Shown: positions 2,185-61,648, numbered from the stretch's first letter. The stretch: 64,000 nucleotides of DNA from a cyanobacterium endosymbiont of Rhopalodia gibba (GCA_045159875.1 CP067995.1:2560001-2624000); one strand, 5' to 3'. The notes: generated by a model from the sequence alone, not told the origin. Numbers and translations are program-made.

Positions 2185-2229
2185 TATTGACCGTTTATTC
2201 ACTATTTTATAGTGAATAAACGGTCAATA
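2185..2229. repeat. Perfect inverted repeat, 21-bp arms, 3-nt loop
   Basis: tattgaccgtttattcactat-ttt-atagtgaataaacggtcaata. Confidence 0.95.
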
Positions 2230-2288
2230 GGCTTTAAAAAATAGTCATAAAACCTAGAATATGTCATTATTTTATCCTTACTCATGTG

Positions 2289-2336
2289 GTTATTTTTAAG
2301 GCATTTTTAACTAGTTAAAAATGCCTTAAAAATAAC
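2289..2336. repeat. Perfect 48-bp palindrome, no loop
   Basis: gttatttttaaggcatttttaact|agttaaaaatgccttaaaaataac. Confidence 0.95.
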
Positions 2337-2406
2337 ATTGACAATGTGAGTTCAACAACTATACCTAAATTAATTATTGAGATTATCTCTCTTGATTGAC
2401 TTAATT

Positions 2407-2448
2407 AGGAGAAAAATAGAGCTTCAATTCAAGCTCTATTTTTCTCCT
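2407..2448. repeat. Perfect inverted repeat, 18-bp arms, 6-nt loop
   Basis: aggagaaaaatagagctt-caattc-aagctctatttttctcct. Confidence 0.95.
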
Positions 2449-2779
2449 GGTATTCAGGCTCAATGTTTTTTATCTACTATAGATAATAGTTTATGAGTTT
2501 CAAAAAATGAGCAGTTCTCAAAAGCTAAAATAGATTCTTCAAACTAATTTAATTGATGGGACTGCATATGATAGTTAGGATTTTCATGAAGTCACAAGAC
2601 TTTATAAAACGACACCACTGTTTAGCCTAGAATGCTAGAATATTCTTTTCCGCGGCTAAATTATCTCTTTTAAAGAGATATCGTTTACTATTGTTTTTTC
2701 TGAAAAAAATTTAACTTAATTAAAGAAAAGAATACTAAAGATAGCAACTAAAAGTCATTCTAGATAAAGGGATGCCTGG

Positions 2780-3237
2780 CCTGGTTAAGTTCAACAGGTT
2801 AACGATTGAGATTATAGTTGCTTTCCATAAATTTCTCTTGTCGTTGAGCAAACCGTATAGCAGAGATACCGCCAATGAAGAAGACTGTAGAAACATCTAA
2901 CAGGTGAACGGACAACCATCTCACGGTAAAAGGGTGTTTTTCTGAATTTAGCTATCAACAGCCTCACAAAGCTTAGATGTTCTCGTTTATTGAACTTGTT
3001 CTAGAATTAACTCCCCCAATAGAGCAGTCAAAAGTACTTCTTTGTCCACAAAAGAATTGTATAGGATTTGTTCGGAAACACGAGCTACCTTGGCTCTTCT
3101 CTCCACACTTGTGCCGGTATACCCATTTTCGGAAAATTATGGAAAAGCTCTCTGTAAAATTTATTGCGCTTTAACTGGATAACGGAAGGATGGAAGTGGG
3201 GAGAAACATAACTAAAATACGGACTGGACCGTACCAT
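2780..3237 (-). pseudogene. TetR/AcrR-family regulator relic
   Basis: Minus strand reads *FSENGYTGTSVERRAKVARVSEQILYNSFVDKEVLLTALLGELILEQVQ*, a degenerate TetR HTH (GYxxTSMDxVAxxAGVSKQTLYxxFxDKE) flanked by stops and frameshifts. Confidence 0.7.
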
Positions 3238-3375
3238 ATTTGTTACCCTACGAGTAGGTTGTTAAAAATACTTAATTAAAAATTTCCTCTCTATCCTTAG
3301 CAAATTAAAAATTAATATGAGACAATGTGCATTTGTGTGTTAGATTAAATAACCACCTATTTGCTAAGATAGACT

Positions 3376-3570
3376 ATGGCTGCTAAAAAAGGAGTACGCA
3401 TTGTCATTACCTTGGAGTGTACTGAGTGTCGGACAAACACAGACAAACGCTCACCAGGGGTTTCTCGCTATACCACCAGCAAGAATCGCCGTAACACCAC
3501 AGCGAGAATGGAAATTAAGAAGTTCTGTCCCCACTGTAATGCTCACACTATACATAAGGAAATTAAATAG
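3376..3570 (+). CDS. rpmG: 50S ribosomal protein L33
   Basis: [14 protein letters not shown]...[11 protein letters not shown]...[17 protein letters not shown]. Confidence 0.98.
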
Positions 3571-3613
3571 TCATCGGTCGCCGTAAAGTTTGTAAACAGT
3601 TAAACCAACAAAT

Positions 3614-3829
3614 ATGAGTTACTATCGTAAGCGTCTTTCTCCCGTCCCTCCGAGTCAACCCATTGACTATAAAGACACAGAACTCCTAAGAAAGTTCATC
3701 ACAGAACGGGGAAAAATTTTACCTCGACGGATTACAGGGTTGACGGCTAAACAACAACGGGACTTAACGACTGCTGTCAAAAGAGCTAGACTTATCGCTT
3801 TGTTACCTTTCGTAAACAAAGAAGCATAA
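3614..3829 (+). CDS. rpsR: 30S ribosomal protein S18
   Basis: [26 protein letters not shown]; follows rpmG. Confidence 0.98.
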
Positions 3830-4128
3830 GGTTGAAGCCATCACTCAAAACCTTATTACTTAAGCAAGAGATGGAGTGAGGCTTGGTCTTCGTTCTACCG
3901 AATACCGAATGAAGTCAGTAAACTTGAGGAAGTAAACTTGAGTACAATTAAGCGTAACAAAAAAGTTCAAGAGATTCTCCCACAGATAGTAACTATCAGT
4001 AATTCCGTTAATGTTAACTTTGAGATTAAAAGTCATACATAATCTAAAACCGTAGAGCTAGACTGAATAGTAAAAGCACGGGACTCCTAAATCAAGGAGT
4101 GATGTTAATAATCAAGGCAGCAAAGCGG

Positions 4129-6144
4129 GTGGAAAAAGGAAAGCTTATTGAATTTAAGGTACAGGGGGAACGTCGTATTGCCGTCGTTGACCGCCCAGAA
4201 GGAAAAAAAGATTGGATGGTCATTGATGTTGAAGGTCAATCCCACAAAATTCGACCTCAACGGGTAGAATACGAAGTAAATGGAGGATCCTACACAATCG
4301 AAGATATTTCCCAGTTTTTACAAAAAGCTGAACCCTACCTTGACTCCTCTAGTTTAGAAGTGGCTTGGGAGTTGTTAGTGGAAAATGGACAGAGTGTGAC
4401 TCCTTCTGAAATGGCGCAATTGCTGTTTTCTGCAGCTTCTCCAGTTCACTGTTATGCAGCTCACAGTTTGTTATGTGACGATAAAATTTACTTTAAGAAA
4501 AAAGGGGATAGTTACGAGCCGAGAAGCAGTGGTCAAGTTGAAGAAATAAAACATCAACTAGAGGTTAAACAACAACGTCAGCAAGAAAAAGAAGTATTCT
4601 TTACTAACATAAAAAAAGCTCTGGCAGGGCGGAAAGTTGATTGGACAGAAAGTGATCGTAATCGGTTGGAAATGTTAGAACGCTTAGTTTTGCAGCCGGA
4701 ACAAACCAATCGTAATTCTCAAGAAATATTGGATGAAATTGGACGATCTCCTACTCCTGAAGCGGCCTTTGAATTGTTAGTAGAATTAGGATGCTGGAGT
4801 CGCAACGAAAACCTATTTCTACGGCGTAGTTCTTATCCGATTCAATTTTCTAAAAAGGTACTTGACGTGGTGCAATTCTATTTAGAAAACCCTCCTCCTG
4901 ATCGAGACAATGATCGCCTTGATTTAACTCATCTCAAAGTGTATACCATCGATGATGAAAGTACTGAAGAAATTGATGACGGGTTAAGTGTAGAATTCTT
5001 AGAGGATGATCAAATCAAACTCTGGATTCATATCGCTGATCCAACTCGTCTAGTGACCCCAGGAGACGAATTGGATTTGGAAGCGCGGAGACGAAGTACC
5101 ACCCTCTATTTACCTACGGGCATGATTTCTATGTTTCCGATAGAATTGGCAACTGGACCAATGAGTTTACGCCAGGGTAAAATCTGTCCTGCCTTGAGTT
5201 TTGGCGTGATTTTAGATGATAAAGGGGCGGTTCTTGATTATTCGATCCACACCAGTTTAATTAAACCAACCTATCGCCTCACGTATCATGATGTAGATGA
5301 GATGTTCCACTTAGCCATCAAAGCTGAACCAGAGATCCCTATCCTAGCTGACGCTTCCAAGCAGCGACACCGATGGCGGAAGTCTCAAGGATCGATTACT
5401 ATCAAGATGCCAGAGGCAGTCATTAAAGTTAAATCCGAAGATGATATTGTAATCGAACTGATTGATAGTTCAAGAGCAAGACAATTAGTGGCGGAAATGA
5501 TGATTTTGGCCGGGGAAGTAGCTGGGCGTTATTGTAAAGAACACAGTTTACCAGTTCCGTTTAGGGGACAGCCTCAACCAGAATTACCCTCAGAAGAAGA
5601 ATTACTCTTATTACCTCCAGGACCTGTGAGGGCTTGTGCTTTGCGCCGTTGTATGCCTCGTAGTGAGATAGGAACTTTACCTAATAGACATGCAAGTCTA
5701 GGTTTAGATACTTATACTCAAGTGACCTCACCCATTCGCCGTTATACGGATTTGTTAACTCATTTTCAACTTAAGGCACATTTACGGGGCGAACCTTTTC
5801 CATTCCCCCTTGATGTTATGCAACAGATTATTTATAGCGTGACTTTATCAGCTCAAGAGGCGACGTTGGTAGAACGACAAACTAATCGTTATTGGGGATT
5901 AGAGTTTTTGCGGCGTAATGCCGATCAAATTTGGCAAGGAGTAGTTTTGCGTTGGTTGCGAGAAGATGAAAATTTAGGAATCTTGCTACTCGAAGAATTA
6001 GGATTGGAATTGCCTCACCGCTTTGAAAAGGCTGTGTCTTTGGGTGATCGTTTGTTGGTTCAGGTTAGTCGTTCTGATCCTCATCGTGATGAGATTCGCT
6101 TTCGAGAGATGCCTAAACATGAAGTCCAATCAAGTATGATTTAA
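4129..6144 (+). CDS. rnb: Ribonuclease II/RNase R family exoribonuclease (RNB domain)
   Basis: TIDDESTEEIDDGLS, HIADPT, VAEMMILA, YTQVTSPIRRYTDL; start probably GTG at 4129 (ORF track gives 4099). Confidence 0.92.
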   Translation: MEKGKLIEFKVQGERRIAVVDRPEGKKDWMVIDVEGQSHKIRPQRVEYEVNGGSYTIEDISQFLQKAEPYLDSSSLEVAWELLVENGQSVTPSEMAQLLFSAASPVHCYAAHSLLCDDKIYFKKKGDSYEPRSSGQVEEIKHQLEVKQQRQQEKEVFFTNIKKALAGRKVDWTESDRNRLEMLERLVLQPEQTNRNSQEILDEIGRSPTPEAAFELLVELGCWSRNENLFLRRSSYPIQFSKKVLDVVQFYLENPPPDRDNDRLDLTHLKVYTIDDESTEEIDDGLSVEFLEDDQIKLWIHIADPTRLVTPGDELDLEARRRSTTLYLPTGMISMFPIELATGPMSLRQGKICPALSFGVILDDKGAVLDYSIHTSLIKPTYRLTYHDVDEMFHLAIKAEPEIPILADASKQRHRWRKSQGSITIKMPEAVIKVKSEDDIVIELIDSSRARQLVAEMMILAGEVAGRYCKEHSLPVPFRGQPQPELPSEEELLLLPPGPVRACALRRCMPRSEIGTLPNRHASLGLDTYTQVTSPIRRYTDLLTHFQLKAHLRGEPFPFPLDVMQQIIYSVTLSAQEATLVERQTNRYWGLEFLRRNADQIWQGVVLRWLREDENLGILLLEELGLELPHRFEKAVSLGDRLLVQVSRSDPHRDEIRFREMPKHEVQSSMI

Positions 6145-6509
6145 AATAGCTGCAACAATTCAACTTCATCTGAGTAAAATTGTTAGTTTAGATAGAAATT
6201 ATTTTGGTTTTTATAGAAGACTGATTCAAGTGCTAGAAGTATATGATTTTCTTTTGTTTTATTTTATGTTATTAGACATTTTTAGATAAAAAATCGTTAT
6301 AAATTAGTTATTTAATTACTCTTGATATTCTTGTTTATTTTCGTCTGATTCGTTTTTTTAAAACTAAAATGTTTAAACTCTCTTTAGATACAGAAGTTAT
6401 TTCATAATTAGATTAGTTATGATATCAAGATTGATATACAGAAATAATTAAGAAAATGTAATAATAGTTACATCTATTATGTAATAATTGACAAGTTTAT
6501 AAAGCTAAA

Positions 6510-6724
6510 AAACTAAAATAAAGGTGCAAACTAAGGCTAACTATAACCCTAAACAATAAAAGACAAAAAATATGTTGTCTTTACTAAAATCCTCGCCAAT
6601 TGATGGTAAAATAAATCAAGAATTGATTGAGCTGTTAGCGAACAAGTTTAAAGTTGCTAGATTCAGAAATAATCGTTAAATAGAGAATATCCTCTCGGAA
6701 GAAATTAATTGATATAAAATAATA
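6510..6724 (+). pseudogene. YggU/DUF167 family relic
   Basis: Reads LKSSPIDGKINQELIELLANKFKVA, then a frameshift to EIIVK*RISSRKKLIDI; matches the PPVDGKAN...SRxKxxxI pattern. Confidence 0.75.
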
Positions 6725-6799
6725 ATCAAAAAATATTGTCTGTTCCTGAGCTTTAGGATAGAAAGACAAAATTTGATAGTGAGAAATTAAATTCTAGTA

Positions 6800-7499
6800 A
6801 TAAGTCAGATATTTTAAATGGGTTTAGGAATCAGTATTTATCTCAGTTTAATAAGAACGAATCCAGTGATCACTCAAGGAACTATAGTTAAAACCTTAAC
6901 CGTTAACCGTTGTCAGATAGGGAATAGAAAGAATTTTTAACGCTTTGACTTACATTCGACTAAAGATAGAAATTTAAGGAAGTTAAAGAAAAAGTGGCTA
7001 AGTGAACTCAACGGGTAGTGGACTTGCTGAAATTGCGCAACGTACAACGACTCCAAACTATCGGACCACAATTACAACCTAACTATAAAATATTAGGATA
7101 ATCAGTAAATATAGTTTTTTTTCGAATAAATAATGTAATTGTTTCTGATCACAGAACAAGTGAGAACATAATTTAGAGAAAACGGTGAAATTAGGAGTAA
7201 CTCGTAATTGATGGAGTCAGTTTTACAGCCACCCAATCAGCGATCGCGGTGGCTCCAAAAGAAGCTTTCTCTCAAGCTACAGAAAACTCACAGCAACAAG
7301 TACAAGCAGTTTTACAAGTCCTGAACTAGACTACGAGGGAATCGTTAGGATTAGAATTGATGGAACTAATGTTCCCTGTTCTAGATTATTGCAAACTGAA
7401 TGGCGTTCAGCAAGAGCCTCTGATGCTAGTATGCCAATGATTGGGGCAAAACAGACCGTAAGGGGTAAGGGCTTCTGTTACTCTACAAATAGCCACTAA
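6800..7499 (+). pseudogene. SIMPL (DUF541) domain protein relic
   Basis: Fragments KTLTV, EKVAK*TQRVVDLLKLRNVQRLQTIGPQLQPNY, IDGVSFTATQSAIAVAPKEAFSQATENSQQQVQAVLQVLN*, MIGAKQTVR..ASVTLQIA, with stops and frameshifts. Confidence 0.75.
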
Positions 7500-7533
7500 C
7501 CATTTAACCAACTAACTGTTTAGGAAACATCAA

Positions 7534-8190: not shown

Positions 8191-8246
8191 TAATTAGATT
8201 TGTATCCTTAACTTTAATATCGCGATAGACATATATTATAAAACCC

Positions 8247-8271
8247 AACCTTAGCCATTGGTGCTAAGGTT
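8247..8271 (+). terminator. Possible terminator hairpin downstream of the DUF3386 gene
   Basis: aaccttagc-cattggt-gctaaggtt, 56 nt after the stop. Confidence 0.4.
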
Positions 8272-13921: not shown

Positions 13922-13946
13922 TATCTATGATAAATTATCATAGATA
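13922..13946. repeat. Perfect inverted repeat, 12-bp arms, 1-nt loop
   Basis: tatctatgataa-a-ttatcatagata. Confidence 0.85.
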
Positions 13947-14260: not shown

Positions 14261-14306
14261 TACAGATTGTAATAGATGAGCTACAGCTCATCTATTACAA
14301 TCTGTA
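14261..14306. repeat. Perfect inverted repeat, 22-bp arms, 2-nt loop, ending 32 nt upstream of crtQ
   Basis: tacagattgtaatagatgagct-ac-agctcatctattacaatctgta. Confidence 0.95.
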
Positions 14307-14338: not shown

Positions 14339-15811
14339 ATGCGGGTTGTAATCGTTGGTGCAGGGTTAGCCGGACTAACCACCGCTATTGATTTGGTTGA
14401 TGCCGGTTACGAGGTTGAAATTTTCGAATCTCGTCCTTTTATCGGGGGAAAAGCAGGTAGTTGGACGGATAATGAAGGAAATCACATTGAAATGGGGTTA
14501 CATGTCTTTTTTGGCTGCTATTACAATCTATTTACCCTAATGAAAAAAGTGGGGGCAAGCCAAAATTTACGCCTAAAACAACACATCCATACCTTTATTA
14601 ATGAAGGTGGACGGGTTGGAGAATTAGATTTTCGTTTCCTTGCTGGCGCTCCGTTCAATGGGTTAAAAGCTTTTTTTACTACTTCCCAACTCTCTACGTT
14701 TGATAAAGTTTCTAACTCTTTAGCTTTAGGAATTAGCCCTATTGTATGGGGATTAATAGATTTCAATGGGGCAATAAAAACTATCAGGGAATTAGATGCT
14801 ATTAGTTTTGCGGACTGGTTTCGTCAACATGGGGGAAATAATGGCAGTCTCAAGCGAATGTGGAACCCCATCGCCTACGCTTTAGGATTTATCGATACAG
14901 AAAATATTTCAGCCCGTTGTATGTTGACAATTTTCTTATTTTTTGCCACAAAAACTGAAGCATCTGTGTTACGAATGTTAGAAGGTTCTCCTTATGAATA
15001 TCTTCATAAACCAATTATTAGTTACCTTGAAACAAGAAAAGCAAAAATTTATACACGACGACGTGTTAGAAACATTTTATTTCAAGAAAATGATAATAAA
15101 ACTCAGGTAACCGGACTAATTGTTGCCAATGGACAAACCGAAGAAAGCATTACAGCAGATACTTATGTCTGTGCCTGTGATATTCCTGGAATTAAACGAT
15201 TAATTCCTCAAAAATGGCGTAAATGGTCACTATTTGACAATATTTATAAGTTGGAAACAGTTCCTGTTGTGACGGTACAATTACGCTTTGATGGTTGGGT
15301 AACCGAATTAAACGATTCCAAAAAACGCAAACAACTACAAATAGCAATTGGACTCGATAACTTATTGTATACACCTGATGCAGATTTCTCCTGTTTTGCC
15401 GATCTGGCTTTAACAAGTCCTGGAGATTATTATAAAGAGGGACAAGGATCTTTATTGCAATTAGTGTTAACTCCTGGTAATTTATTTATTAAAGAGGAGA
15501 ATGAAACTATTGCTTATCATATTTTAAATCAAGTCTATAATCTGTTTCCCTCCTCAAAAAACCTAAAAATGATTTGGTATAGTGTTGTTAAACTAGCACA
15601 ATCTTTGTATCGGGAAGCACCCGGAATAGATCCTTATCGTCCTACGCAAAATACTCCTGTTTCTAACTTTGTCCTAGCAGGGAGTTATACTCAACAGGAT
15701 TACATTGATAGCATGGAAGGGGCAACAATTTCAGGAAAACAAGCGGCGAAAGTTATTTTAGAAAAAGTAGAAAACGTTAAAAACTATCACCAACCTGTCA
15801 CAATTCGTTAG
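14339..15811 (+). CDS. crtQ: 9,9'-di-cis-zeta-carotene desaturase
   Basis: GAGLAGL FAD motif, [32 protein letters not shown]. Confidence 0.95.
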
Positions 15812-17727: not shown

Positions 17728-17735
17728 TCAATATT

Positions 17736-28283: not shown

Positions 28284-28324
28284 GATAACAGTCAGCAATT
28301 TCACCAAAATTGCTGACTGTTATC
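28284..28324. repeat. Perfect inverted repeat, 18-bp arms, 5-nt loop
   Basis: gataacagtcagcaattt-cacca-aaattgctgactgttatc. Confidence 0.95.
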
Positions 28325-31515: not shown

Positions 31516-31569
31516 TAAAACAATCAAAGATTTAACCAATGATAATGAGTTAAATCTTTGATTGTTTTA
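31516..31569. repeat. Perfect inverted repeat, 21-bp arms, 12-nt loop
   Basis: taaaacaatcaaagatttaac-caatgataatga-gttaaatctttgattgtttta. Confidence 0.95.
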
Positions 31570-36600: not shown

Positions 36601-36635
36601 TGGTCACTAGTCTATAAATCGTCAAAATTTCTAAT

Positions 36636-36670
36636 AATATCTTTTATAGATCTAATCTATAAGAGATATT
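36636..36670. repeat. Inverted repeat, 16-bp arms with 1 mismatch, 3-nt loop
   Basis: aatatcttttatagat-cta-atctataagagatatt. Confidence 0.85.
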
Positions 36671-36944
36671 ATTGAATTTTCATCAAGTAAATCCTCTACA
36701 TACATGAATTTTCCGGTTTTATAGCTATTCTCTTTATCTATAGTCTTCTTGAGTAGGAGTTTCTTCAGTTGGCTTTGTGATAAAATTTTGCTGAAAGACA
36801 ATCACTAGTAGGGTTGGCTCTAAAATAGTGGGATTACGTCAAGTTTTAGCAACAAACTTTTCGTTAAATCGGAGGAGTCTTCCTCTTCTCATTTTAGGGA
36901 TACTATTGATTGTTTAATTTAATTTAAGAACATAAGATTAGCTC

Positions 36945-38592: not shown

Positions 38593-40164
38593 TTATCTAG
38601 ACTTTTTAATTAATATGAAGTCTTGAGCATTTCCTAAGATTTTATACTTATTTAAGTTTAATTTTTCTAAAGTTAACGGATCTAAAAGAAAATAGAACGA
38701 GATAGCTGCTGATTTTTTTAACTCTTCTAGATTTTGAGCAATCACTTGACGATCACTATAAAAATCTAAACTAGTACGACTATAAGCATAAGAGGTATAA
38801 ACTACTGTATTAGGAGGAGTATTTTTCTGAATTAGAGCAGCTACAGGTTTAACAGGAAATGATTCATTCAGTTCCCAAATCCATAAATCAGATATTACAA
38901 ACATGCCCAAACTCAAATATAATCCAACAAAAAGAGTGAAGATAAAGTTACAATTATTTTGTATAAAATTAACATAAGATAAAGCGAATGTAATTCCTAT
39001 TAAAATTGATAATGTGAGAAGTTGAAAATTATTAGTTTTTATACTGAAATAAACTCCCCCTAGTGAAGCTAAACTACCAACAAGTAGTAAAATCCCTAGA
39101 ATCTTGGGATAAAACTGATCATTATTTTGTACAATTTCAGCCAAATATGCCCCCACAGCTAAAGAAAAGAAAGGATATACAGGCAGAATATACCATGGTA
39201 ACTTAGTCCTCATCAAGGAGATAATTCCTATAAACAGGATAAACCCAATTAAAACTAATTTAGCCCAACTTTGCTGATATTTTTTAATCGCTAAAATTAA
39301 TCCTCCAGGCAAAAATGAAAACCAAGGAAAACTATATTTTACTAATTCAATTATATAATACCATACTGAGCCTTTATTTCCTTCAACTGCGGTAGATAAT
39401 CGATCAAAGTTTTGTTGTAAAAAGTGAACTTCAATGAAATTTTCTCCATACTCGATAATTTGAAGTGGGTACCACAAAATTACTGGAAAAAATCCTAAGA
39501 TAAATCCACCCCAAAATACAGGATTTTTAAAAAATTTTGAAAATTTATTGAAAATACAAAATATTCCCAAAATTCCACCCAAAGCAATAACTAAAGTTCC
39601 TTTAGTAAAAGCGATTAATCCCAGTCCAATTCCTACTCCGATTATCCAGAAATGCTGATAAAAAGACTGAAATAAACAGAAAATAGAGAAAAGAAAAAAA
39701 GTATTAATTGGTCCATCTAACATTGCTAGTCGTCCATGACGTACCATAGGTAATAATGTTAAATATACCAGTGTGCTGAAAATAGCTGGAAGACGACTAG
39801 GAAAAATATTTCTTCCTATTAAATATAATAAAGGAACACCACAAGCTGTCAAAAAAGCACAGGGAAAACGGGTTGTAAATTCACTGACCCCTCCAATTAA
39901 ATAGCTCATATTTATTAACCAAATAATCAGAGGAGGTTTAAGTAAAAAAGGTTCATTGTGATAGGTCATATATAACCAGTTACCACTTTTGTAAATATCC
40001 TTAGCAACGGTTCCATAATATCCTTCATCCCAATCTCGTAATGGTAAATTACCCAGTCCGATTAAATATAAAATAAGAGCCGATAATAACAAAAATATAA
40101 ACCAGGATATATCCTGGTTTATATTTTGAAAAAATTGCTTAAAATTAGGTATTTTAGAGATCAT
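38593..40164 (-). CDS. ArnT/PMT-like glycosyltransferase (GT-C fold)
   Basis: LRDWDEGYY, KPPL, TRFP.A, RLAMLDG, TKLPWYILP; multiple TM helices. Confidence 0.9.
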   Translation of the reverse strand: MISKIPNFKQFFQNINQDISWFIFLLLSALILYLIGLGNLPLRDWDEGYYGTVAKDIYKSGNWLYMTYHNEPFLLKPPLIIWLINMSYLIGGVSEFTTRFPCAFLTACGVPLLYLIGRNIFPSRLPAIFSTLVYLTLLPMVRHGRLAMLDGPINTFFLFSIFCLFQSFYQHFWIIGVGIGLGLIAFTKGTLVIALGGILGIFCIFNKFSKFFKNPVFWGGFILGFFPVILWYPLQIIEYGENFIEVHFLQQNFDRLSTAVEGNKGSVWYYIIELVKYSFPWFSFLPGGLILAIKKYQQSWAKLVLIGFILFIGIISLMRTKLPWYILPVYPFFSLAVGAYLAEIVQNNDQFYPKILGILLLVGSLASLGGVYFSIKTNNFQLLTLSILIGITFALSYVNFIQNNCNFIFTLFVGLYLSLGMFVISDLWIWELNESFPVKPVAALIQKNTPPNTVVYTSYAYSRTSLDFYSDRQVIAQNLEELKKSAAISFYFLLDPLTLEKLNLNKYKILGNAQDFILIKKSR

Positions 40165-40190: not shown

Positions 40191-41774
40191 TTAGATTTTT
40201 TGTTTAATCGAATAAAGATAATATTTTTCATTATAAATGAAAGCCTTTTTGAATTGAGCTAGGGAGATAATTTCAAGATCGCTTCTTATTGTTTTTAATT
40301 GTCGATTTAAAATTAAAATTATATTTTTTTTATTTTCACTGTTATTAATCAACTGATTGATTGTTGTTAATATTTCTTCATCATTGATTATTTTTCTCTG
40401 TTCATTAAATAAAACATAACTCCCTAATTTTTTGCTTTCTGGATAGTAAATTTTTTTATTTAAATAACCACTAATAGGAGCAATAGTAAAGTCTTCACTA
40501 CCGACGATTATCATTGATTCTAGATTATTTTTTTGTATAAAGTTAGCTGTAGCACGACTAGCGGAATAAGGAGTTAGTGAATCTCGACTAAACGCAACAA
40601 TGCCAGCAATCAACTGAAGATATAGAATAATCATCAAAAAATTGCCTTTATGATAGATTACAAATTTAAGCCAACTTGACGATAGTTTATAGAGTTTTTG
40701 AGGGAGGCAACGAAATAAATTAACCAGTGATTCAGAATTAAAACAATAATGTTCTATCCATAGGGAAGTAATTAGAATGATATATAAGTGTCCATAGTGT
40801 CTTTGAGAACCTAAAAATTTTAGATATGTAAAAGTTAAAAATTCTAGACTACTAACTAAATAAAAAAATAATGCGGTTGTTTTTTGGGCTAAAATCATCG
40901 ATACGAACCCTAACAAACCTAAAGATAAAACTGCAAAAATAGCCAAATCTAGAGGGTTACTATCGCTAGGGATTAAAACTAAAATATAGCTTCTCCATAT
41001 TCTTGTTAGTGACTGATTAAATCTAATCCAATCAAACTCAAAAAACCATTGACTTGCTCCTCCTTGTAGGGTACTGTCTGACGGAGGAAGTAGCATGATG
41101 ACAGCCAACACTATTCCTAAACTAAAAATTACAAAAGCAATAACAACATTTTGGATTCCTGGTTGAACTTTATGTTGGGAATAATTATGTGTCAAATGGT
41201 CAAAAACTAATGTCAAAGCTAAAGACACAGAAATCATCAAGCAATAAGCATTTGTATTAGCCATAAAAGCTAAAATCAAAGCTAGGGGAATATAATTTTT
41301 ACGGCGAGTCTCGAAATAAGTGCAGAAGCAAAAAATAGCTAGAATTCCTAAAGAATAATTCCGGCTAATCAGAGTATATTCATAAAAAGGTAAATATCCT
41401 AATGAAAATAACAACTTTTGCTGTTTGCTAAAAGGAGAATAGAAAACAAATAAAGTCAGACATCCGACAGCAATAAGCCAATGAAAAATCTGCATTGCTA
41501 GAGGATTAGGAGTTAATTGATTAAGTCCCCATAAACAGATATACCAAAGAATTGGATGTCCTTCATATTTGATATTAGAAAAAAAAATTTTCCAAGAAAC
41601 ACTATCCCTAGCAATTAACCATCCATTGATTTCATCACGCCACATAGCATGATTAAGAATACCAATTAAAGTAATGACAGCAAAGCTAATGACTAATAAT
41701 AGATTGAAGTAATTTTCTTTAATTAAATTTAAGTTAAGCCGAGAAAAGCATTCTTTTACAAGAGTCATACTCAA
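40191..41774 (-). CDS. Polytopic membrane protein, probable GT-C fold glycosyltransferase
   Basis: HAMWRDE, YEGHPILWY, YEY..ISRNY; many TM segments; adjacent to the ArnT-like gene. Confidence 0.75.
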   Translation of the reverse strand: MSMTLVKECFSRLNLNLIKENYFNLLLVISFAVITLIGILNHAMWRDEINGWLIARDSVSWKIFFSNIKYEGHPILWYICLWGLNQLTPNPLAMQIFHWLIAVGCLTLFVFYSPFSKQQKLLFSLGYLPFYEYTLISRNYSLGILAIFCFCTYFETRRKNYIPLALILAFMANTNAYCLMISVSLALTLVFDHLTHNYSQHKVQPGIQNVVIAFVIFSLGIVLAVIMLLPPSDSTLQGGASQWFFEFDWIRFNQSLTRIWRSYILVLIPSDSNPLDLAIFAVLSLGLLGFVSMILAQKTTALFFYLVSSLEFLTFTYLKFLGSQRHYGHLYIILITSLWIEHYCFNSESLVNLFRCLPQKLYKLSSSWLKFVIYHKGNFLMIILYLQLIAGIVAFSRDSLTPYSASRATANFIQKNNLESMIIVGSEDFTIAPISGYLNKKIYYPESKKLGSYVLFNEQRKIINDEEILTTINQLINNSENKKNIILILNRQLKTIRSDLEIISLAQFKKAFIYNEKYYLYSIKQKI

Positions 41775-46049: not shown

Positions 46050-46520
46050 TCAATAAGAACGATTTTATGCGGGACCTAGCGGATAATTATCACATTTTTG
46101 TTTAGATTTCCAAAAGTTTACCGGGAGAATTTAGCTACAAATCAGTTAACCGTCAAAAACGAGAACAACTCAAAAATTTAAGGACTAAAGATTCTATTAA
46201 AAGGTCAGAGATTCTTTTATTTTTCTATAAAAACATAGAACACAATCAAGCAGTTAATACTAATTAATAACATTATTCATGGTTTTTTAAAAAAAAAAGG
46301 CTATTTTACCGTAATTGTCACGTTCAAATATTTAGATTATATAAGGTTGAGTCAAACTTATTCCCATACATTTGAGATTTAATTATTTAAAAATTTCAGA
46401 TATGTATCAACTCAGTTACATCAATTAACCAATCTCATGAATTAATTGATGTAGTTGAACAATGTATTCGGAATTAACAGTAAGTGTTTGAGTTATGTTA
46501 GGGCTACCTACTTAGGTTGT
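46050..46520 (+). pseudogene. HAD-family hydrolase relic
   Basis: Degenerate DxDGTLAD (..FYAGPSG/GTxAD), then LPGEFSYKSVNRQKREQLKNLRTKDSIKRSEI, directly after queG. Confidence 0.55.
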
Positions 46521-46989: not shown

Positions 46990-47390
46990 AAATTATGATA
47001 TATAAATAATAGCTAACCAGAGATTTGTGTCGTTTATCTAGATAAACGACACAAATCTCTTCTACAGCGTCGCGGAGTATTCTATATACTTATCAATCTA
47101 AGTGTGTTCTATCGAGAATTATTATGTGGACCGTAAGGAAACCTATTGTAATAAATTACAATTTCTTCTGCCCTACACCTGATTACTGACAATCTAATAG
47201 CACCAGCTCTACTTTTTAATATTTGAAAAACTTTTTAAGCTTTACTTAACTTAAATAAAGTCTTTTCATGCTTTAACTTAAAAAATATCCTTAAACGAGG
47301 AGATGATATTAGTTAATCAGAGTTCTTACAGCTGGCTATGCCAACATACTTTGGGATATGTTTGTGGAAATAACTTTTAAACGGAAAACA
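46990..47390 (-). repeat. Decayed dispersed repeat copy A (inverted paralog of about 60080-60470; probably an IS relic)
   Basis: Reverse complement aligns by eye with 60080-60470, e.g. attaaaaagtagagctggtgctattagattgtcag vs attaaaaaatagagctagtaccactatattgtcag, and gaatactccgcgacgctgtagaaga vs gaatgctccgcgaagctgtagaaga. Confidence 0.8.
47019..47060. repeat. Perfect 42-bp palindrome, no loop
   Basis: agagatttgtgtcgtttatct|agataaacgacacaaatctct. Confidence 0.95.
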
Positions 47391-47802: not shown

Positions 47803-49342
47803 ATGAAACTCGCTTACTGGATGTATGCTGTCCCTGCACACATTAGAACTCTAAGAATTGCTAGTTTCTTCAAAAACGTCAATGCAATCATGCACGCCCC
47901 CTAGGCGATGATTACTTTAAGGTAATGCGTTATATGTTGGAAAGCAAGAGGGACTTGACCCCTGTTACCGCTAGCATTGTAGCTCGTAATGTCTTGGCAC
48001 AAGGTTCCCAAGAAAAGGTAATTGATAATATCCTTCGGAAAGATCAGGAAGAAAACCCAGATTTGATTATGCTAACGCCGACTTGTACCTCTAATATCTT
48101 ACAAGAAGATTTAGCGAATTTTGTAGAGCGTGCCCAAATAGATACGAAAGGAGATGTGAGGTCAGCTGATGTTAATCATTATCCTTATAATGAACGGCAA
48201 GCAGTAGACAGAACCTTGCTTGCATTAAGTCATTAAATTTTATCTAGAAAAAGTTTCAAAAAAAGGTGAATTACCTTAGAAAAAACCTGAGAAGCCTTCT
48301 GTTAATATTATGGGAATATCTCCACTAGGTTTCCATAACAAACATGACTGTACTGAGCTAAAACGATTAATGAAAGATTTAGGAATTGAAATTAATGGAG
48401 TAATTCCCGAAGATGTATCAGTTCACGACCTAAAAAACCTACCAAAAGCGTGGTTTAATTTAGTTCCTTATCCAGAATTCGAATTGATAGCAGCTCAATA
48501 TTTACAAGAAAAATTTGGAACTTACTATGTAGATATTCCCCCAACGGGAATGGTATAAACAGCACGGTGTATCCGGACAATTCAATAGGTAATTAATCAA
48601 CAAGGTGCTAATGTTGATTATAAAGACAATATCAGAGAACAAACTCTTCATATTTCCCAGTCCGCTTGGTTTTCTCGTTCTATTGATTGTCAGGATTTAA
48701 CGGGGAAAAAAGCAGTAGTATTTAGGGACAATACTCATGCAGCAGCAATAACTAAAATCCTCACATGGGAGATGGGAATTAATATGATTTCAGCAGGGAC
48801 CTATTGTAAATAGGACGGAAAATGGTTCACAGAACAAGTGAGTGAATATTGCGAGCAGGTTTTAATTAGTGATGATAATGCAGAAGTTAGTGATGCAACC
48901 GCTCGTCTGAAACCTTCTGCTATTTTTGGAACACAAATGGAACGTCATATTAGGAAGCGCTTAGATATTCCTTATGGAGTAATTGCCTCGCCTATTCATA
49001 TTCAGAATTGATTTTACCATTGGTTACAAACTTTTCTGCGGTTATGAAGGGACAAATAAAATCATAGATCTAATTTATAATTCTTTTACTTCGGGAATGA
49101 AAGCGCATCTCTTAGAGATCTTTAGGGGACATGATACTAAAGAAGTTATTACGAAAGGAATTTCTACTAATTCCGATTTGAATTGGAATCAAGCAGCACA
49201 AGCAAAATTAAATCAAATTCCTAGTTTTGTACGAGATAAAGTAAAATGTAATACTGAACAGTTTGCTAGGGAACATAAATTTTCTACAATTACTCTTGAG
49301 CTTGAGGTGATGTACTCTTCTAAAGAGTCGGTAGAAGTTTGA
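47803..49342 (+). pseudogene. chlB: Light-independent protochlorophyllide reductase subunit B pseudogene
   Basis: [19 protein letters not shown], then a -1 frameshift in a C-run (about 47900); [51 protein letters not shown]; several in-frame stops (e.g. 48556, 48811) and frameshifts; full length retained. Confidence 0.97.
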
Positions 49343-49913: not shown

Positions 49914-49952
49914 TCATTGTCTAATTAGAAATATTTTCTAATTAGACAATGA
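49914..49952. repeat. Perfect inverted repeat, 18-bp arms, 3-nt loop; each arm contains its own palindrome tctaattaga
   Basis: tcattgtctaattagaaa-tat-tttctaattagacaatga. Confidence 0.95.
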
Positions 49953-50287: not shown

Positions 50288-50331
50288 ACTTTCAACCTTT
50301 TATTAAAAAATCTTAATAAAAGGTTGAAAGT
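50288..50331. repeat. Perfect inverted repeat, 19-bp arms, 6-nt loop
   Basis: actttcaaccttttattaa-aaaatc-ttaataaaaggttgaaagt. Confidence 0.95.
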
Positions 50332-52484: not shown

Positions 52485-52532
52485 TAAAAAGTATTTTTTA
52501 GTCTAGTTAACTAGATTAAAAAATACTTTTTA
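52485..52532. repeat. 48-bp palindrome with 1 mismatch, no loop
   Basis: taaaaagtattttttagtctagtt|aactagattaaaaaatacttttta. Confidence 0.92.
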
Positions 52533-52907: not shown

Positions 52908-52958
52908 ATTATTTATTTAATAATTATTTTTCTGAAAAATAATTATTAAATAAATAAT
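52908..52958. repeat. Perfect inverted repeat, 25-bp arms, 1-nt loop
   Basis: attatttatttaataattatttttc-t-gaaaaataattattaaataaataat. Confidence 0.93.
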
Positions 52959-54320: not shown

Positions 54321-54984
54321 TTTGATATTTTAATCTTTATCTAGTAAGTCGAGTAAAATCGTTTCTATTTAGCTTTTTTTAATGTAAAATAGCTGCAAAT
54401 GTAGGCTAAGAGTTCGGGACAGCTGTAATATTTAGTTAAATAACTTACTACACTTATATCAAAAGTCTTTAGTAGATTTTGATATTCCTGATTAAGGGTT
54501 AAAAATAACTATGATTTTAGTACATTGACTCTCATCTATAAGAATTTTACATAGACGGCTCTTTTTTGCTCAGAGAATTACACAATCTTTAGCAACTTAT
54601 TTAGAAAGTACATATTGATTTTGTCGTATAGTGTCATGTTTAACGTCTTAGGAATTGAGATTAATCATCGTTATTTTTAACTTTCTATTTGAGTAATAAT
54701 CCGACGTATATCTTAACTTCTAAAAGCTCGAGATAAGCTTACCTAAATAGTAACATTCTTGCGACATTATTCTATAAATTGCTCAGTTTCCATGTTTTTA
54801 CTATGTTAAGAGTTTGATGATGGCAAGAAAGCCTGCACAGATGCGACAGTCTAAGGAGGAGACAAAAATACTATATCTATACCCCTGGTTTTAAGGAGCA
54901 GGGAGAATTAGTTCGGAGATTTTAGATAGACTCGATTTATTTTGTCTATTGTACCTATTGAATAAATATATTTTGAGGAAATGT

Positions 54985-55584: not shown

Positions 55585-55737
55585 AGGAGTTATTAATATA
55601 AAAACAAGGAATTACAAGACATAGGGATAAGAAACTTTTAAAGTAAAGGTTATTCGCTTTTTAGTTTGGCGATATTCAAAACAGTGGCAAGATTGAATTA
55701 TTCTCAGAATTTATTTAGGTCTACCAATACTCATACT

Positions 55738-57048: not shown

Positions 57049-57138
57049 TTGATAATTAACTAGTTTTTCTCTTCATAGTAAGAACAATTAAAAATTATTA
57101 GCTTTTATTTTTTTTAGCTCAGTTATTTTTCCTACTCT

Positions 57139-58455
57139 TCAATTAGGAGAATTTTTCTTATACCTTGCGATCGCTGCTTTTTTGAAGAATTCAATATACT
57201 GTTTGTATCCCTCAGGAAATACAATATTTAAGGTCAGTGGATCATCTTTGTCTCGGTGATCTCCCGGTCCTCTAATAACGCGTAATTCTTCTAGCAAATC
57301 TTTATTTTTAGGGTCGACAAACTTTTCTAGTTTTAGAGGGTTACGATTTTTAACTTCCCCACTACTACTATCAATATAAACGGTAATATTTCCTGACTTA
57401 AATTCTTTGCCAATCTCTTGAATAAGCTGTAAAAATCCGCGGTCACTCCCCCCCCGTTGAAAGCTCAATTGACCATTTATTTCTTTAGCTTTGCTAGTAA
57501 CGGTATCCCCTACTCCTATGATAGTTGGCATTTGTATTGGATCAAAATTATCTTTAATTAATTTCAGTATTTTTTGATGATCTTCAGGAGATTGTCTCAC
57601 GTTAAAACTTTCTCCTAATGGATACTTTCCCGTTTTATTGTAAAAGTAACGATTGAGGATAACCAGGACCCCAACTTCTTTAATTGCCCCCCGCAACATA
57701 AATTGAAAGTCTGTTGTTCCGGAGTCTTTCCCCTCAGCTATTTGCATGATTTCTCGTCCTTGAACATCTTTCCCTAAGTTGGGGGCATAATGAATAAAAA
57801 AGGAATTATTCAATCCTTGATTTTTAGCTTGTTCTTCCAAATTATCCATTAAAATTTTCATTGCCTGCTGTAATTGACAATAGCTATCTTCTTGATGCTG
57901 TAAGTATTCATGAAATATGTTTAAATTTACGGTTGGGGATACTTTATTGTCTAGGACAGTTAATTGAATTCCTTGTTTTATTTGACTTTCTTCCAATCCA
58001 TAATTATTTTGCTTAAAAAATTCGATTAACGCTTTTTCAATCTTCTGAGGAACTTGTTGTAAAAAGGTTAATTCTTCTTCACTAACTCCAGGATGAGAAA
58101 CATTCCCATGACAATCTTGCCATTGGACTCCACCACCCGCTAAACCTGGTAGATAAAAACCTCTATTTTGGACTAAATTGATATTCTTTAAGGTACGTTC
58201 AATAATTGCATTAACCCCTCGTTTGCCAATATGTTCCCCATTAGTTAGGACAAAAAAATGTCCTTTAAATAATTTAGTAGCTTCCAAATAACTTTTATCA
58301 ATTATCCTTGTTAAAGGATCTTTGACTAACTTCATACAAACACCATCAAGATCTTGAATAATTAAAATATTTTGCTGGTTAGAGATTAAATTGATAAGGT
58401 CCTGATGATCAAGAGATAAAGAACGTTGATGTAAGGGAGTATGGGTAGCAGACAT
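57139..58455 (-). CDS. stpA: Glucosylglycerol-3-phosphate phosphatase (StpA/GgpP)
   Basis: IIQDLDGVCM.LV.DP, LTNGEH.G.RGVN, YLPGLAGGGVQWQD, GVGDTVTS, RGGSDRGFL. Confidence 0.93.
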   Translation of the reverse strand: MSATHTPLHQRSLSLDHQDLINLISNQQNILIIQDLDGVCMKLVKDPLTRIIDKSYLEATKLFKGHFFVLTNGEHIGKRGVNAIIERTLKNINLVQNRGFYLPGLAGGGVQWQDCHGNVSHPGVSEEELTFLQQVPQKIEKALIEFFKQNNYGLEESQIKQGIQLTVLDNKVSPTVNLNIFHEYLQHQEDSYCQLQQAMKILMDNLEEQAKNQGLNNSFFIHYAPNLGKDVQGREIMQIAEGKDSGTTDFQFMLRGAIKEVGVLVILNRYFYNKTGKYPLGESFNVRQSPEDHQKILKLIKDNFDPIQMPTIIGVGDTVTSKAKEINGQLSFQRGGSDRGFLQLIQEIGKEFKSGNITVYIDSSSGEVKNRNPLKLEKFVDPKNKDLLEELRVIRGPGDHRDKDDPLTLNIVFPEGYKQYIEFFKKAAIARYKKNSPN

Positions 58456-59049
58456 TGTAATTAATAATTAAAAATACTAAAACCAAAAGTTGGGGCAAAA
58501 CCCTAATTGGCAATTTAATAATACATAGTTTGAATTTAACATAGTCATTCTCACTATGCAATTTTTATTAACTTCAGCTACTTTGAAAAAACAACACTAA
58601 TTTTTAACTTTAAACTTCATCAGAGATTAATTACCTTGATTTTTAAGATTTTTGTCATAGGTTAAAGGAAAGATATGCTATATTCCTCATTACTTATAAT
58701 AAAAGGTGATTTTTTTTGATTAACGAATATTTATTTTAATTTTTATTTAAAAATATGTTTATTTCTAATACGAACAACATAAAAAAATATAGTATTTGTG
58801 ACTCCACTCTGTTAATTTTTGGCTTCTAATGCCACTTTTTGCAAAAAACTAATTTAACAGAGTGCTATCCAAATCAATTCTTTGAGAGATCGCTATATTA
58901 ACTACATCAGTCTTGGTATCATAAGTTAGTAATTTTACTAAAAAAATAAAACATAAATATGTAGAGAAATATTTGAGTTTCATTTTTTTTATTTATTATA
59001 TTACAAGCCCTTTGTAAAAATTTGAAAAAACTATTTTTCTGATTAGAAA

Positions 59050-59960
59050 TAGATTTTGTAAACTAACACTAAAAATAGTCAATAAATCTCGTAGAAACTA
59101 ATCTCGCTGCAACCGTTGAATAAAAATGTAATTTTAAGCTACCGATTACAGTAGTTTTCTCAGAAAATACCACTCTATTTTTAGATCAACTATCTTAGCA
59201 AGAAGAAAACAATTGCCAGCCTTTCTAAAATTGAGGTTAAGACGATGCTAAAGAGTATAGTATCTAGGGTGTAAAAAATATTTTCTAAAATTAATAAAAT
59301 TTAGTTTATTGAAAGTAAAAAATATATCCAGGAAGAATTGTTTCATACTTTGAATACTTTACATGAAGGAGAAAAACGTCTGGTCTTAACTCCGGAGCGG
59401 CTCCTAAACGCATTCATCTTCTACCAAATAATATATCATTTTCCTATAAAATTAATTACAGATATTCAAATTACAGATATTCAAATTCCTAATCTGGAAA
59501 CTCACATAGCTATTCTACAAAAAAGCTCAATATGACAATGTATGTCTTCCTAGAAATGTAATTAGATATATTTCCATCAACTACATGTCTAAATTTTCGA
59601 GGGTACTTTAATTTAGGCGATCACCTATGTCTCTATTTCTGGACTATCGATAACAGTAGAAAATATTGCCCCTTGTTAAATCCTCCCATAGAAAAGGCTC
59701 TTGCTTTTCCAGAAATTATTCTGCGTACAGTAGCCGATAAACAGTATCAGTGGAAGTTTTAAAAGAAAGTTCTAGACTATGAAAAATAAGTCCAGCTCGA
59801 TAGCTAGAGATGTATTTAGTGCGTCAGTCAGCACATAGAGTTAAGTTTGCTCCAAATTGACAAAGAGATTATACAACGGTGTTATGTGATTGTGACATAA
59901 TTTCTAAATTATAGCCAAAAGACTGGGAACTTAGTCAAATCCTATCGGAGTTAAGTAATC
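59050..59960 (+). pseudogene. dnaA: Chromosomal replication initiator DnaA pseudogene (may begin near 58750)
   Basis: Fragments [32 protein letters not shown] (Walker B region), DIQIPNLETHIAILQK, YDNVCLPRNVIRYIS, EGTLI*AITYVSISGLSITVENIAP.LNPPIEK, AR*LEMYLVRQ..HIELSL and DYTTVLCDCDIISKL (domain IV, DHTTV). Confidence 0.92.
59454..59487 (+). repeat. 15-bp tandem duplication inside the dnaA relic
   Basis: aattacagatattca repeated twice plus aatt (ITDIQ ITDIQ). Confidence 0.9.
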
Positions 59961-60079
59961 GCATTAATATGGTTAGTTAGGTTCAATTCTGATTGTTTCT
60001 TTTTTAAATTCAATTTAGAGCCTGAGTGGTTGGACATAAGTAAACGGCACTATATTAATCTGTATTGTAGCTCTAAAAA

Positions 60080-60470
60080 TAATTGCGATAAACAAAGGCT
60101 AAAGTATGTCAACACAGTTAGCTATAAAAACTATAATTGACTAATGTCGTTTTTACGTTTGAAGTCTTTTTAAAGTTGGAGGAAGAGAAAAGTTTATTTA
60201 GTTTAAGCGAAGTCTAAAAAACGTTTTTAATAAAAATTAAAAAATAGAGCTAGTACCACTATATTGTCAGCAATAAAATAGAGAGCAGAAAAGATAATTT
60301 ATTGTTAAAAATATAATTATTTGATAGTTTACATAACAATTTACGGATGAAATAAACTTGAATTAATAGGATTATGGAATGCTCCGCGAAGCTGTAGAAG
60401 AAGCTTGTTTACAATATCTAGATAAATCAAACTTTAATCTTTAGTCAGCCATTACTTATATTTGACTTAT
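60080..60470 (+). repeat. Decayed dispersed repeat copy B (paralog of 46990-47390)
   Basis: Aligns with copy A; carries only the 10-bp core tatctagata where copy A has a 42-bp perfect palindrome. Confidence 0.8.
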
Positions 60471-60499
60471 TTCTCAAAATTAAGAATGAATTACAAAGA

Positions 60500-60960
60500 A
60501 AAAAAGAAGATGAATTGGACAGTAAAATATTGGAATATTAATGAGATAGCAATTTCGATTTAGATAGATTAAGGAAAAAGTAACTAAAAAATATTAGTTA
60601 CGCAAAAAAATAAAGCTACACTCAATAGATATTTTTACAAGAAGTATAGAACTACTTTTTCATGAGATAAGATAGCTTACTTGCATAAAAAATAGATATC
60701 ATAGTCAGTATTTCTGGTATGTGTTGTTTAGTTTTAAAAATTAAGTTAACCTAAAAAAAATATTTTATGCCTTTGTACCCTATACAGATCAAGTTCAAAC
60801 TTAAAAAAAGAAATATTCGATAATATTTGAATGAATCAAACTTTCAGCCCTAGTTTTTATTGACAGAACTGGAGTTTATCTAGCCATGACTCGTCACTTT
60901 GCCAGAGCAACTAATGAAGGATGGACAAATCAAGAAGCTTTTCTCATTAATAAAACAAAA
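60500..60960 (+). mobile_element. Decayed IS630-family transposase relic
   Basis: IIVSISGMCCLVLKIKLT*KK and LVFID.TGVYLAMTRHFARA fragments. Confidence 0.75.
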
Positions 60961-61616
60961 GTAATGATATTATAATTGTGCCTAAGAGCTTGTGTGGTCA
61001 TAGATTTTACTGGCTCATAAAGCCACAAAAGTTAAATAAGTAATGGAATCCATAAAAAAAGTTAGTTAAAAATAAAAAAATATTTGTGAATTTAAGAATA
61101 TATAAATTTTATAAATTTCAATAAAGCTATTAATAAAGTAATTAATTTAGTAACACGATAAAGACATAATTGCTTGGTTTTCCCACTTATATTAGAGTAA
61201 ACTACTCAATTGAAACTCACTATAGATGAGCTTGCAGTGATAGAAGCTATTGAAATTATGCTCAGTACATAATAATTTAGAGGTAGATATATTTTCTATC
61301 AAGAATTGTAAGCTAGAGGAATTTGATTGACTTAAAAACATTAAAAAGTCTAAATATCATTAAAATAAGTTAATATTCAGTGTGTAACTTACGTTAACTA
61401 GTATCTATATTAATTTCAATTTTCATTTAAACTTCTTAGATGAAGAAGATCTCTTATTTTTTCCGTATAAATTTATAGTTGATCTATTTTTTAAACAGTT
61501 CTTTATAGAGTATTATTCATTTATTTTTTTTTTAAAAGTAAGTACTGGTAGGATTAAAATTTTAAAATAAAAAAAATAGATAATTTTTTATTTTAAAAAA
61601 ATGAAAAAGTTCAAGT

Positions 61617-61648
61617 ATTGAATATTTTTTAATAAAAAAATATTCAAT
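61617..61648. repeat. Inverted repeat, 14-bp arms, 4-nt loop (AT-rich)
   Basis: attgaatatttttt-aata-aaaaaatattcaat. Confidence 0.7.

Follow-up and report, generated by a model that had tools for sequence, protein, structure and literature searches.

Why should one stretch of chromosome hold so many long, perfect and mutually unrelated palindromes? The question is raised by 64,000 nucleotides (nt) from a cyanobacterium endosymbiont of Rhopalodia gibba (GCA_045159875.1, CP067995.1:2560001-2624000), referred to here as the window; it is C1:2560001-2624000 of its own genome, G000. An original prediction, made from the sequence alone, had listed 14 inverted repeats in this DNA and proposed a process of templated strand switching as their source. 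All 14 are present, with small corrections (36633-36673 in one case, alternative pairings at 2407-2448 in another). The census, the comparison with related genomes and the tests of other explanations given below make it highly probable that the palindromes arose by short-range template switching in the course of DNA synthesis, that is, by quasi-palindrome correction. This type of mutation is already known, and it is its density here that is unusual.

Taking as a palindrome any perfect inverted repeat with arms of at least 15 nt and a loop of at most 12 nt, we counted 350 on the chromosome, whereas ten dinucleotide-preserving shuffles (in blocks of 200 or 1000 bp) gave 0 or 1 each and 3 altogether. 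Arm length is distributed almost evenly from 15 to about 26 nt and then declines, the longest arm having 38 nt; in the shuffles, by comparison, numbers fall about threefold with each added base. The flat range of 15 to 26 nt is thus not the geometric decay expected by chance. Repeats with 12-nt arms number 87 in the real genome and 6-16 in the shuffles. A chance origin is excluded for the palindromes of the window, except for the two with arms of 12 nt (13922-13946) and 14 nt (61617-61648).

The palindromes are distributed evenly over the chromosome, with 10-43 in each 250 kb, and mostly avoid genes. The earlier observation that none lies inside an intact coding sequence is close to the truth: it stands for the 330 found outside open reading frames (ORFs) of at least 100 amino acids but not for the 11 that overlap an ORF end or the 9 that lie inside one, and the window itself has a case, 40092-40127, that falls within the longest reading of an ORF. 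The arms are AT-rich, with a mean GC content of 0.228, below the non-coding average of 0.283, and a GC content of 0.5 or more in only 2.6% of them. There is no loop at all in 76 of the 350 (22%), which are palindromic through the centre. Of the repeats with 18 or more matched pairs, 216 are free of mismatches, 40 contain one, 17 two and 6 three to five. Simple decay would give mismatch classes of roughly equal size, so that either correction outruns point mutation or all the palindromes are very young, as had been supposed. Repeated correction is the better reading, because the orthologous sites described below are so often quasi-palindromic.

Density, the number of perfect palindromes for each kb of DNA outside ORFs, was measured across some 480 kb in synteny with the region of the window (80 kb only in G004). 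It was 0.224 in G000 and 0.292, 0.228, 0.264 and 0.470 in G001, G006, G003 and G004, the reduced, single-contig sister genomes of the genus. Three other genomes, G002, G005 and G007, are of free-living size; here the density was 0.013 in G007 (1 in 75.1 kb) and 0.025 in G002 (2 in 81.6 kb). The endosymbionts are therefore about 14 times richer per non-coding kb than these two free-living genomes (229 palindromes in 882 kb, as opposed to 3 in 157 kb). The few palindromes of the free-living genomes are GC-rich and some are recurrent; for example, G007 has a small GC-rich family of repeated hairpins, GTAGGG...CCCTAC. Since the contrast holds per kb and the free-living palindromes are of this different kind, it does not come simply from a larger amount of non-coding DNA. 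A second reduced genus of the same family is also rich in palindromes. Its representative G021, a dnaA-less genome of 1.49 Mb with 75% of its DNA in ORFs, had 43 in 400 kb, or 0.437 per non-coding kb, with arms of up to 46 nt; of the 38 whose context could be assigned, 16 are situated between divergent genes. Such a density in a compact genome argues that junk DNA alone is not the full explanation. In G025, from a third dnaA-less genus, none was found in a 76-kb sample holding merely 6.6 kb of non-coding DNA.

Change of the arms at orthologous sites

The four closest genomes are about equally distant, with 87-88.6% identity over long high-scoring segment pairs. Of the 221 perfect palindromes that we took from the four genomes and aligned to the others, 177 could be anchored to one ortholog or more, for a total of 399 comparisons. 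Only in 8 of these was the second genome also perfect (1 identical, 7 with changes in both arms), and in 38 it came within two pairs of perfection; of the remainder, 127 had at least 60% of positions paired and 226 had fewer. The palindromes are thus mostly lineage-specific and, judged from these alignments, their turnover is fast, with perfection mostly reached in a single lineage. Arm identity was 0.682 against 0.754 in flanking control segments of equal shape. The arms are less conserved than their flanks, which is the opposite of what constraint on the sequence would produce.

The direction of change could be followed at 139 perfect palindromes with at least two aligned sisters. In 106 of them there are positions at which the sisters agree on an unpaired state and the focal genome is paired. 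Such positions perfected in a single lineage number 472 altogether, with up to 12 in one palindrome, and fit continual re-homogenisation; focal-specific changes from one pair to another were found at only 58 positions. Changes within a palindrome tend to fall in the same arm (321 of 418 positions, against 282.9 +/- 6.2 under random assignment, the observed count being reached in none of 5000 simulations). The pattern of perfection is present with each of the four genomes as the focal one and is therefore not an effect of tree shape.

Clustered change of one arm into the exact reverse complement of an unchanged partner was found at 14261, at 47019 and, by way of a templated insertion of 8 nt, at 49914 in the window, at 54969 and 366832 in G003, and at 306159 in G006. 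The clearest picture comes from G003 segment 54969, where the left arm and the flanks are about 95% identical to the sisters and the right arm has six changes within about 12 nt, every one of which creates the complement of the unchanged left arm. The rewrite at G003 366832 is similar and lies in a frame that is open in all four genomes. That at G006 306159 lies in a gene open in three sisters, the G006 copy being broken only by a frame change near residue 290. The notion that the process is tolerated only in non-coding DNA is therefore not strictly true, as rewrites also occur inside ORFs and in genes that have barely decayed.

At 14261-14306, the right arm belongs to the leader of the zeta-carotene desaturase gene; all four sisters conserve it, and part of it is recognisable in free-living G007. 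Compared with G006, G003 and G004, the left arm shows several substitutions and a 2-nt insertion or deletion, and the palindrome is perfect only in the window and G001. The right arm is old leader sequence, of which the left arm has become a rewritten mirror copy; in G007 the centre of the aligned site reads GCGATCGC. At 47019-47060 the left arm has likewise been rewritten to fit the right: it is the reverse complement of the conserved right arm, and the quasi-palindromes of G001 and G006 have additional left-arm bases. At 2289-2336 the right arm (TAAAAATGaCTTgtAAATAAC) is common to G003, where the left arm is different.

Loops change as well. Of 128 loop comparisons, 59 were ambiguous, and among the 69 decidable ones 22 are inverted relative to the ortholog and 47 direct. 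The inverted ones include that of 31516-31569, whose reverse complement matches G003 at 100%, G006 at 92% and G001 at 75%. One-step rewriting of an arm, homogenisation of arms, inversion of the spacer and the bias towards perfection, with perfect repeats outnumbering near-perfect ones, are the defining marks of quasi-palindrome or template-switch mutation, and we place the palindromes in that class.

Template switching and the competing explanations

In the proposed mechanism, a nascent strand would pair with a short inverted repeat close by, which may lie on that strand or on the opposite template, copy a few to a few dozen bases there and then go back. A single event would turn one arm into the exact reverse complement of the other, and the occasional outcome would be an extended arm or an inverted loop. 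Through repeated events, the arms could be made alike again more quickly than point mutation drives them apart. In an AT-rich genome of which about half is non-coding, such events would be nearly neutral and might build up until there is about one for every 4 kb of non-coding DNA, with quick turnover. A minority would begin from functional hairpins, such as the likely terminator at 40092 or the leader or operator-like sites at 14261 and 31516. The switch itself presumably takes place at the replication fork, and we infer that intact SbcCD or deletion by slippage sets the upper arm length of about 26-38 nt.

Precedents exist in bacteria and eukaryotes. Perfect inverted repeats in Proteobacteria and quasi-palindrome template-switch mutation are described in the available part of PMC5941160, and arm homogenisation and spacer inversion appear as template-switch marks in the accessible text of PMC5941160, PMC8604942, PMC8794818 and PMC7202029. 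The bacterial systems (the Ripley model, the E. coli reporter hot spots) share with ours the conversion of imperfect to perfect repeats, the multi-base templated changes and an excess of perfect repeats, mainly between genes (PMC5941160, in the part available). They differ in that the density here is far above that of the free-living relatives sampled, and in that the same part of PMC5941160 reports high conservation of the same repeat, while here perfection is mostly the property of one lineage. Short template switches of eukaryotes, as presented in the accessible text of PMC5453318, PMC8794818 and PMC8604942, likewise give stems in one step, double changes that look compensatory, homogenised arms and inverted spacers. 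Those studies, so far as that text goes, concern nuclear genomes, RNA genes or coding sequence, whereas the present case is an endosymbiont chromosome with the products in non-coding DNA without shown function.

Several points weigh against template switching as we have framed it. Change is confined to one arm in only 31 of the 88 palindromes with at least two polarised positions; with so partial a bias of direction, many palindromes need several events or changes in both arms. MAFFT may place bases arbitrarily in fast-changing AT-rich DNA, which would inflate the count of shared unpaired positions. The evidence from reads consists of assembled contigs only. As regards a raised rate, the non-coding DNA of free-living genomes is much shorter, and stronger selection on it could by itself account for the contrast with them. 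Palindromes are modestly in excess within 50 nt of ORF 3' ends (14.3% against 7.5% at random in G000, 41% against 23% in G021). Finally, 28284 and 40092 are kept at the same site in all sisters with changes in both arms, a pattern that selection on structure would give as well.

These last two points are also what would be expected if most of the palindromes were selected structures, i.e. intrinsic terminators, plastid-like 3' hairpins that stabilise mRNA, or operators, kept perfect by compensatory substitution. The recurrence of the core of 31516 as a 22-nt motif at two exact and two variant sites points the same way, as does 40092-40127, which alone in the window fits a terminator by position and tail. 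Like Rho-independent terminators and plastid 3' inverted repeats, the palindromes are intergenic hairpins. However, as a class they do not have the GC-rich stem, the T-tract and the position just downstream of a gene that define an intrinsic terminator, and many lie between divergent genes (16 of 38 in G021) or at a great distance from genes. The nearest ORF 3' end that points at a palindrome is a median 620 nt away, against 615 nt at random non-coding positions; fewer than at random are near ORF 5' ends; and T-rich tails are at background (18.9% against 15.4%). The low arm GC and the lack of a loop in 22% also speak against a terminator role, in agreement with the first reading of the sequence. 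No match was found in the window by Rfam at gathering score or by tRNA scans. The arms evolve faster than their flanks, a second genome is perfect too at no more than 8 of 399 orthologous sites, and single-step rewrites of several bases in one arm are impossible by point substitution under selection. RNA function, moreover, does not require strict perfection. Selected structure is therefore an improbable account of most palindromes.

A further alternative is that the arms are homogenised and the loops flipped not by switching at the fork but by recombination between arms, by cruciform processing or by fold-back priming at double-strand breaks. The 22 loop inversions are equally expected from inter-arm recombination, sbcCD, recJ and recQ are intact, and the loss of dnaA could mean recombination-dependent replication starts. 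Yet RecA-dependent exchange usually requires a minimum length that arms of 15-26 nt just reach or fall short of. Length-preserving substitutions in one arm fit a copy made by switching and returning, whereas fold-back duplication would lose or duplicate the flanks. New arms also arise where the sisters are only weakly complementary, and recombination between existing arms cannot create those. We give this alternative little credence.

The palindromes are unrelated to one another, as had been claimed. Only 29 of 61,075 possible pairs among the 350 are similar at E<1e-3, nearly all through A/T low complexity, the one real exception being a 26-nt core in common to 31516-31569 and the palindrome at C1:631471. 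Orthologous palindromes or quasi-palindromes stand at the same sites in four independently assembled sister genomes, and a contig from a DNA run of a separate study (X5) spans 50288-50331 with no internal difference, by which an assembly artefact is excluded. Assembled contigs do stop at palindrome centres, in DNA and RNA runs alike, which is an effect of the k-mer graph. In spite of the G007 hairpin family and of such breaks in De Bruijn contigs, it is thus extremely improbable that the palindromes are copies or footprints of a mobile family of the repetitive extragenic palindrome (REP) or miniature inverted-repeat transposable element (MITE) type, or artefacts of assembly or amplification, since the 350 are not many copies of one sequence and no target-site or terminal features were seen at them.

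Repair genes, dnaA and the rate of switching

In E. coli, high rates of quasi-palindrome mutation are tied to loss of single-strand DNA exonucleases. Here no such loss separates the endosymbionts from their free-living relatives. The genes sbcC, sbcD, two recJ, mutS and mutL are open and of full length in all eight genomes of the genus, and polA, recQ and RNase H are intact in all five genomes tested. The xseA gene is missing from seven of the eight, and this absence does not separate the groups because the seven include free-living G007 and G005; RNase_T-type exonucleases are absent from four of five genomes, again including G007. The second reduced genus has recJ and an open, full-length sbcC-like gene just below the curated cut-off. 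Loss of repair genes, which the original prediction had put forward as a cause, is accordingly rejected. For such endosymbionts, the available text of 10.64898/2026.03.19.712447 states that replication and repair genes are largely intact except dnaA.

Within the tests made here, palindrome-rich genomes are separated from free-living ones by the loss of dnaA, depletion of HIP1 and lower GC, all of them correlations only. In the family, dnaA is present in 76 of 89 genomes and absent from five reduced genomes of this genus, all three of the genus of G021, a third genus and two incomplete assemblies. Three genera thus lack dnaA: this one, in its reduced genomes, one with genomes of 1.4-1.5 Mb and one with compact genomes of 2.8-3.8 Mb. 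The window retains a dnaA relic at 59293-59965 (+), made up of two fragments, with 11 stop codons in them, that correspond to positions 207-332 and 357-437 of the DnaA profile; no trace of it was found in G001, G003 or G004. The AT-rich stretch that follows (60-62 kb, GC 0.24) may be the former origin region. Cumulative GC skew over the whole chromosome is weak, and no single clear origin or terminus was seen.

The octamer HIP1 (GCGATCGC) occurs 42 times per Mb here and 631 times per Mb in G007, a depletion of about 15-fold that agrees with the available part of PMC4390886; none was found in 76 kb sampled from the dnaA-less genus of 2.8-3.8 Mb. HIP1 and REP-like cyanobacterial repeats, as treated in that part, have in common with the palindromes that palindromic DNA is over-represented. 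HIP1, however, is one fixed 8-mer, while each palindrome here is unique and 30-80 nt long.

We infer that the high density reflects weak selection together with AT-rich DNA, and possibly a raised rate of switching. The data fit either a raised rate or ordinary switching that accumulates under weak selection in AT-rich DNA. A more far-reaching proposal is that independent dnaA-less lineages (this genus, of about 2.5-3.1 Mb, and the compact second genus of about 1.5 Mb) have each come to switch templates at a genuinely higher rate through a changed mode of replication, with DnaA-free initiation and more restarts or single-stranded DNA in AT-rich sequence, rather than through nuclease loss. We regard this as tentative and rather doubtful. 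If the rate were indeed raised, template switching would be an active force in the evolution of organelle-like genomes, rewriting leaders and promoters, striking dying genes and supplying hairpins. The free-living contrast and the second reduced lineage thus raise the question of whether endosymbiosis or DnaA-independent replication alters the mutation spectrum or just the efficacy of selection.

Hundreds of dated, polarised template-switch events in nearly neutral DNA form a natural data set, from which the speed of hairpin creation, extension, flipping and re-perfection could be set against that of point mutation. There are two cautions. Perfect hairpins with seemingly compensatory changes in endosymbiont or organelle DNA need not be functional, and palindromes break k-mer assemblies at their centres. 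Among the papers listed by full-text searches, whose coverage left preprint supplements outside, none was found to connect these endosymbionts with palindromes, inverted repeats, hairpins or template switching. The only paper to combine a host or endosymbiont term with 'palindrom' in one such search was the HIP1 study, and the accessible text of two genome papers does not contain the words 'inverted repeat', 'palindrom' or 'hairpin'.

Genes and palindromes of the window

The genome G000 has 3.06 Mb in a chromosome, C1, of 3,058,178 bp and a contig, C2, of 6,464 bp, with a GC content of 0.339 and only 52% of the chromosome under ORFs of at least 100 amino acids. It is a reduced, non-photosynthetic cyanobacterial endosymbiont of the type known from rhopalodiacean diatoms. 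Low coding density in such endosymbionts is due to degraded gene fragments, according to the available text of 10.64898/2026.03.19.712447. The genes of the window are cyanobacterial housekeeping genes (ribD, hemC, hemF, zeta-carotene desaturase, thiE, ilvB, an aminotransferase, parts of opp/nik-type ATP-binding cassette (ABC) transporters, trpF, leuD, queG, pyrC and glucosylglycerol phosphatase), set apart by long stretches without genes. The gene chlB, for subunit B of light-independent protochlorophyllide reductase, is split into three ORF pieces (47925-49342, +), which fits the loss of photosynthesis. The zeta-carotene desaturase gene (14339-15811, +) is open in the window and G001 and has one or two in-frame TAA stops in G006, G003 and G004; it is undergoing independent loss among the sister genomes.

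Table 1. Inverted repeats of the window, with their structure, surroundings and state at aligned sites
Position	Arms and loop	Surroundings	Aligned sites and remarks
2185-2229	perfect, 21-nt arms, 3-nt loop	256 nt downstream of ribD, in a 2.2-kb gene-free stretch	lineage-specific; no palindrome at the aligned site in G001, G006, G003
2289-2336	perfect, 24-nt arms, no loop		only a weak quasi-palindrome in sisters
2407-2448	18 perfect pairs and 6-nt loop, or loopless with 21 pairs and 1 mismatch		quasi-palindrome in three sisters
13922-13946	12-nt arms, 1-nt loop		length not safely above chance
14261-14306	perfect, 22-nt arms, 2-nt loop	ends 32 nt before the zeta-carotene desaturase start codon	
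24982-25021	perfect, 18-nt arms, 4-nt loop	nearest ORFs about 670 nt away	quasi-palindrome in G006
28284-28324	perfect, 18-nt arms, 5-nt loop		hairpin in all four sisters
31516-31569	perfect, 21-nt arms, 12-nt loop	ends 32 nt before an oligopeptide/nickel ABC permease gene	
36633-36673	19-nt arms, 1 mismatch, 3-nt loop		first given as 36636-36670; quasi-palindrome in G001, G006, G003
40092-40127	perfect, 18-nt arms, no loop	63 nt past the stop of ORF 40191-41774(-)	newly found; present in all four sisters
47019-47060	perfect, 21-nt arms, no loop	864 nt upstream of broken chlB	
49914-49952	perfect, 18-nt arms, 3-nt loop		8-nt insertion, absent from G001, completes the right arm
50288-50331	perfect, 19-nt arms, 6-nt loop		weak or absent in G001, G006
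52485-52532	24-nt arms, 1 mismatch, no loop		lineage-specific
52908-52958	perfect, 25-nt arms, 1-nt loop	most AT-rich stretch	sisters not alignable
61560-61598	perfect, 15-nt arms, 9-nt loop, nearly all A/T	some 1.6 kb past the dnaA relic	newly found
61617-61648	14-nt arms, 4-nt loop, A/T-rich		length borderline against chance

The two hairpins that are kept in all sisters (Table 1) show their changes in both arms. At 28284-28324 these read GTTAGC/GCTAAC in G006, ATAATAG/CTATTAT in G003 and ATGACAG/CTGTCAT in G004, while G001 has several mismatches. At 40092-40127 they read CCAAGAT/ATCTTGG and CATAAA/TTTATG in G006, with mismatches in G003 and G004. The latter has a T-rich tail on the minus strand, which is the strand of the preceding gene, and is the window's one good terminator candidate by position, tail and conservation. 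It spans codons 13-24 in the longest reading of ORF 38593-40164(-), for which an alternative TTG start is codon 25.

The core of 31516-31569 is a 22-nt motif, TTAAC-N12-GTTAA, with a AATGATAAT-type centre. It is exact at 31532-31553 of the window and at C1:631485, with variants at C1:538270 and C1:2675454, and at two of the four sites it is the core of otherwise unlike perfect palindromes. The copy ahead of the ABC permease gene may serve as an operator, with flanks lengthened by template switching.

A Pfam scan of 29 of the 34 stop-to-stop fragments of at least 40 amino acids within 200 nt of the window palindromes (the five overlapping an ORF were omitted) gave no match, the fragments being short. 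Contigs of run X5 differ from the window in two adjacent bases at the centre of 52908-52958 (52932-52933), and at 46289-46291, where AAA to TTT shifts a T6A10 boundary near a contig end; the second difference may be an assembly error. Three RNA-seq libraries, likely from the source sample, contain 93-94% of the sampled words of the largely non-coding window segment 44001-54000, at contig depths like those of genes, which reflects either pervasive transcription or DNA carry-over. The small contig C2 (GC 0.26) has seven perfect inverted repeats with arms of at least 13 nt, one of them with arms of 35 nt (2143-2218), a density much above that of the chromosome.

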